From: Candidatus Levyibacteriota bacterium
GTDB lineage: Bacteria > Patescibacteriota > Microgenomatia > Levybacterales > UBA12049
Assembly (NCBI GenBank): GCA_963722305.1
Contig: CAVRKE010000002.1
Span: 586,678 to 650,677 of the forward strand
Length of the DNA: 64,000 bases
Reading direction: 5' to 3'
The notes beneath the pieces are model-generated. The model searched no databases. It saw only the letters and a program-made list of their open reading frames with translations, and had not been told where the DNA came from. A program made the position numbers and the translations under genes. Below, one piece after another: positions 13,312 through 56,438 of the stretch (position 1 is the first letter of the stretch; every line of letters begins with the position of its first letter).

Positions 13312-13376
13312 ATAATCCGCTGCTATAAGATAGATACATGGTAGAAACAGCTGTTGCAGGATACCGTTGCAAAAAC

Positions 13377-14520
13377 GGTCACCTGAATAGCCTCAAGAGT
13401 TCTCCAATTTCCTCAGGGTTTTTCATGGTCTGTTGAAGTGAAGATGTTCCATTTAACATTCTGAATTTAGCGGTACAATCGGTAAAGACTTTCAGTCTTC
13501 GTCTTAAGAAATATGCATTTAACCACATATCAGCGTGTTTAAATGATTCAAAACCTTTCAGCGGCTTTACTCTGGCTTCTAAGTGCGAGTTGTAACTTTC
13601 AATCAGATTAGTAGTGGTGGGAATAGTTCTGTTATTCATGTAGGTGTTTAATTGCGGTAATCTCCTTTGCATGTCTAAAAGGATCGCAGAAAGTAATGAA
13701 TCATGTTTGTAGGTATTATACAGTTTTGCGGCTAATGTGAGGAATTCATCTTCCGCTCTTTTGTGAGAGAACAAGTCTTCTATTCTCTGCATAAAAGGAA
13801 GATATGTTGTATCAGTTCTGACTCCAAGAGTTGTCCTGATATTCTCCTTGTAGTGATTATGGCAAAGTTGAGTAAGCACTTTAGGATATACTGACACACA
13901 GGCATCATAGATATTGGCATTGTCATCAGAAACAATGGCCTGTAAAGGATAATTCAATAATCGTAAGGAGTTGAAAAACGTCCGGCAAGTTTGGTAGCTT
14001 TCAGATTGGGAGAAAATATATGTTGGGATATCATGAGTAAGGTAATCAATCCCATACAAAACCGGAATCTTTCTTTCGTATCCCTTCACTTTAATATATT
14101 TTCCATCAACCACTAATATCCCACAGAACTTACTGCAGTATTTTCTTGTTACGTCTGCTAAATGAGGGAGCTCTCCTAATTCCTTAAGGCAGCGTCTGTA
14201 GGCAGTAGATGGGTCAATTTGGTAGGTTTTTCCTAAGGAGCGGAAAGATACTCCGGTCAGATGAGCAAACAGCAATTTTCCAGTGGAGTTTTTCTTTATC
14301 CTATTTATCTGAAACCATTTATTACACTTTCTACAAACATATTTAATTTTTCCTCTTCTTACTCCTTTACGGATAGTATTTTGGCTTTCGCAGTGGGGAC
14401 ATCTGTAAGATGCTGTTTTTTTTCACTCAAGGAGTATATCATCAACAAAGACAATTCTCACTGAGTGGAATTACTGCTTTTGTTTGTTAGAACAATCTAA
14501 ATACCCTCTTTCAGGTGACC
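13377..14520. mobile_element. IS element (ZF-DDE transposase family), copy 1
   Basis: 11-bp terminal inverted repeats GGTCACCTGAA at 13377-13387 and 14510-14520 (inverted) bracket the transposase gene. Confidence 0.55.
13379..14442 (-). CDS. zinc-finger DDE transposase, interrupted by a frame change at an A8 tract
   Basis: Main ORF 13379..14275 (VDGKYIKV...DDN...). An in-frame upstream extension encodes a C2C2 zinc finger (CPHCESQ...CRKCNKW) up to a stop just 5' of the A8 run (plus T-run 14416-14423). The ATG at 14442 is in the -1 frame. Confidence 0.6.
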
Positions 14521-14523
14521 AAA

Positions 14524-15009
14524 ATGCAACGGTCTCCTGTTGCAGAACCAGAGGCAAAACCGGTTTTGGAAGGAGTTCCCAAAGAGATAAAACAAACAGT
14601 CCCCGAAGCCTTAATCGTTAGAGCGAACGAAATTATTAGAGAAGCAAGAGTTGTAAGCCCAGGTATAGTACCCACTACAGTCACAACTCAAAGGGAGCCA
14701 GAAAAGCCAATAGACGACTCAGTTTATGAGGCTACTGTATTAACAGCAAAAAGACAAGGTATACCGGCAGCACAAATGATCACAACGTCACGAAGAATAT
14801 CTGGGAAAGGTCCGGAATCACTAACCAGATACACATTGTTTACAGCAGATGATGACAAATTGAAGATTGGTTTTGATAGAGGGCGTTTGATAGAGATTAG
14901 TGCTGACGAAGGTAGTACCCGAGTTGAATTTGGGCCTAAGTGGTACGTAGGAAATCTTTCTCCAGAACAGCAATCGAAATTATTAAGGAGAGTGGGCGTT
15001 AAAGTTTAA
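14524..15009 (+). CDS. hypothetical protein (higher GC, adjacent to IS)
   Basis: ORF 14515..15009. The likely start is the ATG at 14524, because the annotated GTG lies inside the IS inverted repeat. Confidence 0.35.
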   Translation: MQRSPVAEPEAKPVLEGVPKEIKQTVPEALIVRANEIIREARVVSPGIVPTTVTTQREPEKPIDDSVYEATVLTAKRQGIPAAQMITTSRRISGKGPESLTRYTLFTADDDKLKIGFDRGRLIEISADEGSTRVEFGPKWYVGNLSPEQQSKLLRRVGVKV

Positions 15010-37285: not shown

Positions 37286-37316
37286 AGATATTGATTATAG
37301 CAAATTAAAAATATTA

Positions 37317-38580
37317 GATAGCGTACCATTCTTCGTCTGCTAAATCGTTGCATTTAGATTATCATGTTGAGACAATCAATTAAGTATCCTCTTCCGGAAG
37401 AAGCTAGGAGGTGAATTATGAGGAAAAAAAATACGTTGTCCGATCTGTCAATCACTTTCAACAAGACGGGCTGGAAACAGATGGGTAGGAAAAGAAAAAC
37501 GGTATCAGAAGCAGCGTTTCGTTTGTCTTAATTGCCACAAATACTTCAGTTTTAAACACAGGAAAGGAATAATCGGTCAAGCACTTCAGAAGAAGGTCTT
37601 CCGTGACAGTTTGGAAGGCAGAAGCAGCATTCGCACCATTGCCAGACGAAAGAGGCTCTCCAAAACCACAGTTTCATTAGCCGTTCTGGAGGTTGCCAAA
37701 CAAACAAAAGGCAGTATCTGGATAGCCAAACATTTTCAGCCTAAGTGGGGACATGTACTCTCGGTGGATGGGAAAATCATTCGTGTCTTTGATCCAATAG
37801 CCGAGCGGTTTCAAGGAAGCGGTCATGAGAAATCATATCTTCTGAAAAAGACCTGGTTAGCGGGTGTGGATGTGATGACCAAAGATTTACCCCATTACCA
37901 AATGGCTGAGGGAGAAACCAAAATCGATCTGTATGAGTACTTCAAAACATTGAAAAATGATATTGGCTATGATTTAAAAGTGTTAGTCTGTGACGGAAAT
38001 CCGGAGACAATGACAGGAGCACAGAGAATCTACGGTCCAAGTATCGGTGTTCAGCTCTGTGTCAGGCATTTCATTGAAACACTTAAAACAATCGCCAGGG
38101 AAGAAAAGCGGGAGGAGAGGAAGATAACCGAAAACCTGGTTGGTTACGTCTGGTTAGCGCTGGCAATGAGAAAAGAGGAAGAGTGTTTAGAGCAATTAAA
38201 GGTACTTCAGACACTAGCGAAGACCCGCTGCCAAAGACTAATCATGCAAAGCTTAAATCAACATCTGTTTTTACTGACCACCCATTTTCGCTTTCACGAT
38301 CAATACTTTGTTCCCAGCTACAACAATGACGCTGAGAACCTGTTTAAGCAACTAAGCTTGAGGTTAAAAAGCTGGAATATGTTCAGAAACAAAGAAAATG
38401 CAGAGCATTACTTAAAAACCTGGGCATTGGCTAGAAGATTTACCAAGTTTACCGATTGCAGAGGTGATATGAACAGATTAAAGAATGGGAAAGCGCCACT
38501 GGAATTAGCGGGAGTAAACATTAGGGGAATTGATTACCTAAATTTGTAACTGAAAAGCAGACGAAATTTGGTACGCTATC
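37317..38580. mobile_element. IS element (ZF-DDE transposase family), copy 2, with 8-bp target site duplication
   Basis: Imperfect 25-bp inverted repeats GATAGCGTACCATTCTTCGTCTGCT (37317-) and the reverse complement ending at 38580. They are flanked by direct repeats AAATATTA (37309-37316 and 38581-38588). Confidence 0.7.
37418..38549 (+). CDS. zinc-finger DDE transposase, with +1 frame change at an A8 tract after the start codon
   Basis: ATG at 37418 with RBS AGGAGG. The A8 run at 37424-37431 shifts to the +1 frame, which encodes the zinc finger (CPIC...CLNCH) and is continuous with ORF 37611..38549 (DDE core). Confidence 0.6.
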
Positions 38581-38629
38581 AAATATTACTTATTGACAAA
38601 TGCAACTTAGTTGCATATAATACTCAATT

Positions 38630-55153: not shown

Positions 55154-56242
55154 GTGAAACCTATGAAATCAAAAGCACATAAGCCGGCATTGTATCATCC
55201 ATGGGGATACACAACCTGGAGAGCAATTGAAAAGGGAAAAGATAACTACTGGGATTATCTTCGTATTCAGGCAAAGTTGAATAAACTATCTCCAAAAGGA
55301 CAACTTCATTTGGAATGGGTAATCTTTTACTACACGTTTGGAGAAAGAAACGTTAGTAAAACCACTAAGCACTTTGGTATTGCAAGAAAGACTCTAAGAG
55401 TCTGGTTAAAACGGTTTGACGGTAAGTTTATCAAAAGTCTTGAAGAGAAACCGAAAAGACCAAAACAAGTTAGGACATGGATGGTATCTCAAAAAGAAGA
55501 GGAGCAAATTATTGCGCTTCGAAAAGAAAACATGGAGCTTGGTAAAAGAAAATTAAAGATTCTCTACGCTAGAAAATACCAGGAGAATATCTCAACTTGG
55601 AAGATTGAACGGGTAGTAAGAAAGCACAAATTATTCCAAGAGAAAAAGAACGGATACGTTAAAAGAAGACCTAAACAGCCTCGAATTCGTATCCATAAGG
55701 TAAAAGAACTATTACAGGAATATCCTACGGGAGTAGTCTGGCATACGGACAGTATTATTATCTGGTGGTATGGCACAAGAAAAGTTATCTTCACAGCCTT
55801 AGAGAACAAAACTAAGCTTGGCTTTGCCAGAGTATACAAAACAAACTCTTCGGCAAATGCTGCAGACTTTCTGAAACGACTAAGCTATTTAAGCAATAAT
55901 CAGCTTGCCATTATTCACTCTGACAATGGATCTGAGTTTGATAAGGATTTTGCAAGAGTATGTGAAATACTTTCCATCCGACAAGTATTCTCCCGCCCCC
56001 ATACGCCCAAGGATAATCCTTGTCTTGAGAAGTTTAATCATACAGTACAAAGAGAGTGGCTTAGTTTTTCTGTCATAGGGCTTGATGAAATTGATGAAGC
56101 AAATATTGATTTAACAGAATGGTTAGTCAAATACAACAGTATTCGTCCGCATCAAGCCCTTGACTACAAAACTCCTTTGGACTATGCTTATGAGCAATCT
56201 CCTCAACTGGTACCAATGACCCCAGCCCAATCATGTAATTGA
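55154..56242 (+). CDS. IS481/IS3-like transposase (HTH + rve integrase core)
   Basis: DDE integrase core (HTDS, SDNGSEF, PHTPKDNPCLEKFNHT). RBS AAAGGAGGTG upstream. Confidence 0.8.
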   Translation: MKPMKSKAHKPALYHPWGYTTWRAIEKGKDNYWDYLRIQAKLNKLSPKGQLHLEWVIFYYTFGERNVSKTTKHFGIARKTLRVWLKRFDGKFIKSLEEKPKRPKQVRTWMVSQKEEEQIIALRKENMELGKRKLKILYARKYQENISTWKIERVVRKHKLFQEKKNGYVKRRPKQPRIRIHKVKELLQEYPTGVVWHTDSIIIWWYGTRKVIFTALENKTKLGFARVYKTNSSANAADFLKRLSYLSNNQLAIIHSDNGSEFDKDFARVCEILSIRQVFSRPHTPKDNPCLEKFNHTVQREWLSFSVIGLDEIDEANIDLTEWLVKYNSIRPHQALDYKTPLDYAYEQSPQLVPMTPAQSCN

Positions 56243-56249
56243 CCGAATA

Positions 56250-56438
56250 GTGTATAATAAAAACATGAAATTGGAAGATTTAATCAAATTACAAAACAAA
56301 TGGGTTGCATTTTCCAAAGATAGAAAAAAAGTGGTCGAAAAAGCGAGCACTTTGGAAAATCTACTAAAAAAAATTGGTGATCAAAGAGATCTGGTTGTTT
56401 CTTTTATGCATCCCGCCGACAAATTTCTTTCACCTTAA
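56250..56438 (+). CDS. small protein upstream of aspartic protease
   Basis: ORF of 62 aa. Stop 13 nt before the protease ATG. Confidence 0.35.
   Translation: MYNKNMKLEDLIKLQNKWVAFSKDRKKVVEKASTLENLLKKIGDQRDLVVSFMHPADKFLSP

Follow-up and report, generated by a model that had tools for sequence, protein, structure and literature searches.

A conserved A-run beside the start codon holds zinc-finger, IS256-like transposases of Patescibacteria out of frame and is a candidate recoding site

Recoding at runs of adenines is common in the insertion sequence (IS) families IS1, IS3, IS5 and IS630, where it joins a DNA-binding or regulatory orfA to the orfB that follows (PMC1088944; PMC3711429; PMC6211511). 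Among the prokaryotic Mutator-like transposases, a conserved -1 frameshift was predicted for the ISMich2 group (Guerillot 2014, PMC3942029). The present analysis concerns two insertion sequences, copy 1 and copy 2, that lie in a 64,000-nt stretch (the window) of a Candidatus Levyibacteriota bacterium (assembly GCA_963722305.1, contig CAVRKE010000002.1, positions 586,678 to 650,677 of the forward strand). Both copies contain one long open frame that encodes an N-terminal CxxC...CxxC zinc ribbon and then a DDE domain, and in both this frame is out of register with the start codon that precedes it, the break coinciding with a run of eight adenines (A8). Most of the relatives that were compared show the same break. 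It is read here, with moderate confidence, as programmed recoding, most likely by transcriptional slippage.

Copy 2 occupies 37317..38580 on the plus strand (1264 bp), within the bounds already given by an earlier interpretation of the letters alone (the sequence-only reading). A search for terminal inverted repeats (IRs) and target-site duplications (TSDs) yielded 24-bp IRs at 37317-37340 and 38557-38580 and an 8-bp TSD, AAATATTA, at 37309..37316 with its second copy at 38581..38588. The ATG start (37418..37420) stands 3 nt after a Shine-Dalgarno (SD) sequence, AGGAGGTGA (37406..37414, plus strand), and is followed by AGG and then by the A8 tract at 37424..37431. The frame that belongs to this ATG (37418-37531) encodes only an unconserved peptide of 37 residues. 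The frame of the zinc finger and the DDE transposase (37422..38549, plus strand; 375 codons and a stop) is +1 relative to the ATG, exactly as the sequence-only reading had described it, and contains no ATG, GTG or TTG before the zinc finger. It is closed upstream by a TGA at 37419-37421 that overlaps the ATG; an in-frame start was also sought farther upstream, and the codons before this TGA contain none. The zinc ribbon itself is at 37437..37535 (plus strand), and its four cysteines do not vary among 10 frameshifted relatives.

Copy 1 lies on the minus strand at 13360..14536 (1177 bp), the bounds first assigned to it being slightly inside its true ends; the borders were set from a 100% identical copy found elsewhere (L117/L118) and from the IR and TSD search. 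Its terminal IRs are imperfect and 27/28 bp long (left, GAGACCGTTGCATTTTGGTCACCTGAA, 14510..14536, minus strand; right, 13360-13387), and its 9-bp TSD, CTGTTGCAG, is present at 13351..13359 and again at 14537..14545. The A8 tract, which is T8 on the plus strand, is at 14416..14423; the tracts of both copies were located where they had been claimed to be. The frame of the zinc finger and the DDE transposase (13379..14422, minus strand; 347 codons and a stop) opens at 14422 after a TGA, with no ATG, GTG or TTG ahead of the zinc finger, and the zinc ribbon (14324..14401, minus strand) was placed by reading of the frame and by the match to a four-cysteine model of NCBIfam. This frame is indeed -1 relative to the ATG at 14440..14442 (minus strand), which had been taken for the start. 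A promoter scan, however, points to a different start. It detected a promoter-like site at 14433..14461 (minus strand), composed of a -35 element GTGAGA, a 17-nt spacer and a TG-extended -10 hexamer TATACT (14438-14433), with transcription predicted to begin about 7 nt past the -10, at G 14426. The ATG abuts the predicted -10 hexamer on its upstream side and probably lies outside the transcript that the element's own promoter produces. The conserved start of copy 1 is probably the GTG at 14424..14426 (minus strand), which abuts the tract, because the predicted transcription start falls there and a homologous GTG occurs in L038, L049 and L097, the closest relatives of copy 1, which have the same succession of -10 box, 6 nt, GTG and run. 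Relative to the GTG the zinc-finger frame is +1, and with this start one and the same change, A8 to A7 or A10, would restore the frame in both copies.

An A8 tract in itself is not rare, since the window holds 10 A8/T8 tracts and none longer; what goes beyond chance is the break of frame at the tract and its conservation in relatives. For the comparison, 37 metagenome loci (family 2, the group of copy 2) and 79 genome loci (family 1, the group of copy 1) were used at the DNA level, of which 97 are non-redundant, and the start codon was assigned by proximity. The genome loci are mostly from metagenome-assembled genomes (MAGs) of Patescibacteria, the hosts including Woesebacteria, Shapirobacteria, Collierbacteria, Gottesmanbacteria, WWE3, Saccharibacteria, Peregrinibacteria and Doudnabacteria. 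The layout common to the 97 loci is a start codon (88 ATG, 9 GTG), an A-run within 0-11 nt of it, and the first cysteine of the zinc finger shortly after. At this start-proximal tract 86 loci are out of frame and 11 in frame. The sequence-only reading had named the lack of a homopolymer in related elements as a finding that would refute it, and the opposite was observed: among the 83 loci with a start-proximal tract of at least A6, 81 are out of frame and 2 in frame, as against 5 out of frame and 9 in frame among the 14 loci with a tract below A6 (Fisher p = 7e-8 for tract length and frame, a value that overstates independence since the 97 loci are phylogenetically related). Among the out-of-frame relatives, 12 carry A6, 32 carry A7 and 37 carry A8, and 9 of the 11 in-frame relatives carry only A3-A5; the in-frame loci with long tracts are one with A7 (L084, after a GTG) and one with A9 (L082). 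Across the sequences compared, then, a long run goes with a broken frame and an intact frame with a short run. Between the upstream stop and the first cysteine, no ATG, GTG or TTG in the zinc-finger frame was found in 80 of 99 loci, a count that does not depend on how the start codon is assigned, and A8 is kept exactly across family-2 elements that are only 64-78% identical.

Two of the relatives deserve separate description. Locus L082, on a contig labelled as a Flavobacterium sp. MAG, has the sole in-frame long run (A9) that is preceded by ATG; its sisters L077 and L072 carry A8 or A7 (A8 in L077) and are out of frame, and L082 may have arisen as a natural ON mutant or been assembled wrongly. 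Locus L149 (467-685) holds a remnant of the copy 2 type with an SD and an in-frame start, ATG GAT A7 TC, in which the DDE part is missing after the zinc finger.

The start-less codons downstream of the tract behave as coding sequence. Over the 64 codons from the tract to the first internal start, 10 frameshifted family-2 elements gave a ratio of nonsynonymous to synonymous substitution rates (dN/dS) of 0.18, at a saturated dS of 1.37; in the same elements the four cysteines are invariant and the ATG frame is full of stops at varying positions. For these reasons the start-less zinc-finger region is taken to be translated and under purifying selection. The pattern of insertions indicates, furthermore, that out-of-frame copies are mobile. 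Copy 1 has a second, identical A8 insertion at another site with its own, different 9-bp TSD, CGTTTCTCG; one relative is present in five copies in one MAG (L044-L048); and the P0161 element occurs in at least two insertion contexts, with A8 every time. The second insertion of copy 1 (L117) also shows a 64-bp tandem duplication of the right end before the TSD (2417-2480), which may reflect an error of assembly or a transposition that went wrong.

The two elements had been regarded as diverged paralogs. Their proteins are only 25% identical, and they are therefore two different elements and not recent paralogs; the resemblance formerly seen between GAG(T)GAAAAAAAAC and GAGGAAAAAAAAT around their tracts is superficial, because the start contexts of the copies differ. 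Members of the IS256 family have imperfect terminal IRs of about 24-41 bp and TSDs of 8-9 bp in the ISfinder description, and the IR length and TSD size of both copies fall within this range. Copy 1 matches the Mutator transposase model of Pfam (PF00872; 32.6 bits, cut-off 21), and its N-terminus matches NF048018 (IS256_N_4Cys; 31.2 bits, cut-off 27). Copy 2 has no Pfam match above threshold; its AlphaFold model (predicted local distance difference test score, pLDDT, 89.5) has the IS256-family ISCth4 transposase as best PDB match (E 3e-8, template modelling score, TM, 0.52). Invariant D/D/E columns are present, in keeping with an IS256/Mutator catalytic core. Against the NCBIfam IS256 model NF033543 and its zinc-binding variant NF048019 (cut-off 150), copy 1 scored 62 and 50.7 bits and copy 2 scored 24 bits, and because these scores are far below the cut-offs both copies are termed IS256-like and not members of the curated family. 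The single uninterrupted transposase open reading frame (ORF) expected of IS256 elements is found neither in the two copies nor in 86 of the 97 relatives. Both elements are distant IS256 relatives or a separate subgroup.

The proposed mechanism is as follows. The transposase, including its DNA-binding zinc finger, would be encoded deliberately out of frame with its own start codon, and the recoding site would be the A-run located in the first 1-6 codons, which measures A8 in the window copies and A6-A8 in relatives. RNA polymerase would slip on the template T-run to give mRNAs with A7, A9 or A10, and full-length transposase would be made only after the loss of one A or the gain of one or two. 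Unslipped expression would lead to a short, unconserved peptide, and because the other events end in such a peptide the transposase would stay scarce. Consistent with this, the A/T run at the frame junction is conserved among homologs, as in known programmed transcriptional realignment (PTR). Slippage at A8-A9 is described in IS elements (Baranov 2005, PMC1088944), slippage in both directions was demonstrated experimentally at an A7 run in IS1447 (PMC6211511), and A-tracts near the transcription start site favour productive slippage in Escherichia coli (PMC12709180). The slip is more readily assigned to transcription than to translation because the direction needed is mixed in family 1 and because the -1 heptamer is out of phase. 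In family 1, 29 loci need -1 and 25 need +1, and the close relatives L056 and L057 need different directions; a shift direction that is not conserved has been used to tell transcriptional realignment from ribosomal frameshifting (Antonov 2013, PMC3711429). The A_AAA_AAN heptamer is in phase in 42 of the 52 loci that need +1 and in only 2 of the 30 that need -1. As to insertion versus deletion of adenines, both lengths of the N-terminus occur among the in-frame relatives, as compared by eye.

Programmed ribosomal frameshifting is a serious rival, of lower yet appreciable probability. It would have translation begin at the ATG or GTG and tRNA-Lys slip on AAA AAA, by +1 in both window copies and by -1 in many family-1 relatives; an E site that is still empty in the earliest rounds of elongation, and the lack of ribosomal protein L9 in hosts, may make such slipping easier. 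On every tract tRNA-Lys can re-pair perfectly. A strong SD also appears to accompany the frame break in the group of copy 2: copy 2 and the elements close to it have a leader, and in all frameshifted A8 elements a perfect AGGAGGTGA stands 3 nt before the ATG, placing the start codon's own SD 9 nt ahead of the tract, whereas the three in-frame A4/A5 relatives (L006, L007 and L012, compared with L001-L011 and with window 37406-37414) have no SD and instead a TAGAAT box 10 nt before the ATG. Several observations weigh against transcriptional slippage. Runs of A6-A7, which would be enough for ribosomes, fall short of the 8-9 A's that elongation-phase slippage of RNA polymerase is usually considered to require, and many loci need a one-A deletion or a two-A insertion. 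Tract length shows no correlation with distance from the start codon (Spearman rho 0.06), which lends no support to the notion that shorter runs suffice near the 5' end. Family 2 is uniform in direction, +1 being needed by 31 of its 32 out-of-frame loci, and by the direction criterion this would fit a ribosomal mechanism. The P0036 element (L129-L138, a GC-richer relative in family 1) is multicopy and has neither an A-tract nor an in-frame start. Ribosomal protein L9 is known from work on E. coli to restrain frameshifting. Many of the hosts belong to Microgenomates, WWE3 and Saccharibacteria, lineages reported to be without L9 (bioRxiv 10.1101/2022.01.07.475337). What argues for transcription nonetheless is that in family 1 the direction differs even between near-identical relatives, and that the canonical -1 heptamer is in phase chiefly where it would be counter-productive. 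The tract is not consistently followed by a slow or stop codon, unlike usual +1 sites, and a search with RNAalifold for a conserved, stimulatory RNA hairpin around the SD, start and tract of family 2 returned 5 weak pairs only, with no covariation. Recoding at the RNA or protein level, which the sequence-only reading had offered as one of its explanations, is thus supported, and transcriptional slippage is preferred as its form.

The remaining explanations place the cause in the DNA, in the data or in the start codon. A phase-variable switch, the other explanation offered earlier, would have replication slippage toggle the tract between ON and OFF lengths, the assemblies showing OFF; homopolymers are classical contingency loci, and the A9 of L082 beside the A8 of its sister L077, like the in-frame A7 of the remnant L149, would suit such a switch. 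It is disfavoured, and rated as quite unlikely, because freshly transposed identical copies should be ON, coming as expected from an ON donor, but all are OFF. Moreover, tract length is not polymorphic in 3 + 10 + 10 independent assemblies of three elements, the OFF lineages are under purifying selection, and A8 is preserved exactly in family 2 in spite of its divergence. Nine restored ON proteins of four elements were absent among about 15 billion proteins, in which the truncated OFF calls are present; a search for ON alleles with the zinc-finger segment alone gave a single match in the protein collection, a truncated remnant, the word index being insensitive for a query of 70 residues. Sequencing or assembly errors, or decaying pseudogenes, are hardly credible. 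Homopolymers are error-prone on some platforms, and gene callers do shorten these genes, the full zinc finger being absent from 76/120 and 110/120 of the top database hits. On the other side, all eight A8/T8 tracts outside the two elements lie within uninterrupted ORFs in a scan of the window, and copy 1 was recovered at 100% identity over 1177 bp, with its A8, in an ENA contig and a Logan contig, making three independent assemblies that agree on A8. A family-2 relative has A8 in 10/10 independent sample assemblies and a family-1 relative A7 in 10/10, and the same state is seen across dozens of independent short-read metagenomes; two separate sequencing errors, the alternative given in the sequence-only reading, are excluded by this agreement and by the clean tracts elsewhere in the window. 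Decay is contradicted by the intact ORFs with their low dN/dS, by the intact TSDs and by the identical copies at different sites. Non-canonical initiation in the zinc-finger frame, for example from a near-cognate codon within the A-rich stretch or behind it, with the upstream ATG irrelevant, is very unlikely. A-rich, unstructured 5' regions favour initiation, and copy 2 has an ATA in the zinc-finger frame directly after the tract, but this ATA is not conserved, the relatives having ACA. In 42 of 82 loci a stop in the zinc-finger frame lies at most 6 nt upstream of the tract, the adjacent out-of-frame ATG or GTG is conserved together with a promoter or SD at canonical spacing, and the short tracts of the in-frame relatives would be left unexplained.

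For transcriptional slippage itself, the position of the promoter suggests a special form in part of the elements. The mRNA of copy 1 and of most of family 1 is probably leaderless, as judged from motif position: a TANNNT hexamer ends 6 or 7 nt before the start in 31 of 56 family-1 loci, and an SD-like motif is present in only 6 of the 56. A -10-like box 6-7 nt before the start, with no SD, is the signature used to infer leaderless genes. With such a spacing, RNA polymerase would pass the tract at a point when the nascent RNA measures only 4-11 nt. It is tentatively suggested, at a probability that remains low, that in leaderless members, copy 1 included, the frame is set in the initially transcribing complex in the style of productive reiterative initiation. 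The A-run would then begin at +4 of a transcript that starts with the start codon, and the slip would decide whether the 5'-terminal AUG or GUG is in frame with the transposase. Slippage during initial transcription is plausible because productive reiterative initiation does occur at A/T tracts. If it holds here, it would represent an undescribed coupling of promoter-proximal slippage to leaderless translation, widespread in mobile elements of Patescibacteria, and one that could respond to pools of ATP and other nucleoside triphosphates (NTPs) or to growth state.

The arrangement has consequences for annotation. In protein searches the gene calls of most close homologs lack the zinc finger. 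Family 1 has 44 calls with the full zinc finger; 16 of them begin upstream and read (Y/H/D)EK(K/R/N) just before the first cysteine (database proteins P0005, P0027, P0028, P0043 and others). Such N-termini (e.g. "..YEKN..") come from an upstream ATG that is there by chance, from which ATGAAAAAA is translated in the -1 frame, and are a gene-calling artefact of the recoding site. Since gene callers either drop the zinc finger or invent N-termini, an abundant IS group from the candidate phyla radiation (CPR) comes to be mis-annotated as lacking the zinc finger or as broken. With regard to recoding in general, the elements suggest that a gene can carry it right at its beginning, where it serves solely to throttle expression and does not generate two proteins, and that recoding of this type may work with runs as short as A6-A8. 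About 100 natural variants that differ in tract length, phase and leadered or leaderless layout provide a broad test bed, which could separate transcriptional from ribosomal slippage in hosts with reduced ribosomes, many of them L9-less.

Further features were observed in and near the elements. Most family-1 elements have a palindrome, TT(G/C)ACTnAGT(C/G)AA or TTTCACTnAGTGAAA, just upstream of or overlapping the -35 region and about 15-25 nt upstream of the -10 box; window 14459-14467 (minus strand) reads CACTCAGTG and is an example of it. The palindrome may serve as an operator or bind the transposase. At window 14525-14544 (minus strand), the flank or target duplication and the left IR of copy 1 jointly form a hairpin that resembles a terminator, TGCAAC...GTTGCA with TTTT after it; it could block read-through transcription into copy 1, or it may be a coincidence. 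In the P0036 element a G-run in the zinc-finger loop varies between assemblies (GGCGGGGGGGGGATC or GGCGGGGGAGGTATC, and also a form shorter by 3 nt). A third, unrelated transposase gene is located at window 55154-56242 (plus strand; 362 residues, GTG start) and is integrase/rve-like by eye, and an ORF of 62 residues that comes after it (56250-56438) holds an in-frame A8 (56366-56373).

In comparison with described elements, the likeness to ISCth4 and the IS256 family lies in the best structural match and in the IRs of 24-28 bp and TSDs of 8-9 bp in the window. The sequence identity is only about 14%, the window elements add an N-terminal four-cysteine ribbon, and classical IS256 members have a single uninterrupted ORF. 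The -1 frameshifting of IS1 (A6C) and IS3 (A_AAA_AAG) likewise uses an A-rich slippery site in a transposase with an N-terminal zinc finger, and the N-termini of both copies have weak matches to NCBIfam IS1 models. There, however, the site follows the zinc finger, and here it precedes it; the canonical heptamer phase is lost here where -1 is needed, and the window copies need +1. The ISMich2 group shares the Mutator/IS256 superfamily and a conserved frameshift that is read as regulation, and differs in that it has two substantial ORFs, shifts in one direction only and belongs to another clade, with no start-proximal homopolymer described. In productive reiterative initiation (Bacillus subtilis pyrG; E. 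coli, genome-wide), the nascent RNA slips on A/T tracts near the transcription start site, and the extra nucleotides are kept in full-length transcripts (PMC12709180). The known tracts begin at +1 to +3 and affect the 5' untranslated region or promoter output, unlike the present ones, which would start at +4 of a leaderless mRNA, with the slip determining the frame. In Buchnera and Blochmannia, conserved poly(A) frameshifts are reportedly rescued by polymerase infidelity. They are similar in being frame-breaking A-runs maintained by selection in small, AT-rich genomes; they differ in residing inside housekeeping genes, as internal runs of A9-A11, and involve no mobile elements and no position at the start codon.

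A close parallel is PTR in the IS630 family, in the IS3-family element IS1447 and in insertion sequences of Deinococcus and Nostoc (A8-A10), which have a conserved A-run at the transposase frame junction as found here. In these, too, the frame is restored by plus or minus one or two nucleotides, the direction varies among relatives, and the presumed role is a low level of transposase. The literature searched contained no description of such recoding in an IS256-like zinc-finger family, in Patescibacteria hosts or at start-proximal tracts. The known runs lie between a substantial orfA and orfB, which slippage fuses, and the window-type tracts are shorter (A6-A8). Here, moreover, the run is in codons 2-6, so that no OrfA is produced and even the DNA-binding zinc finger is encoded downstream of the shift. 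The system is thus a known type of throttle at an unusual place, and by the sequences compared some 80 relatives keep an out-of-frame run of A6-A8 near the start.

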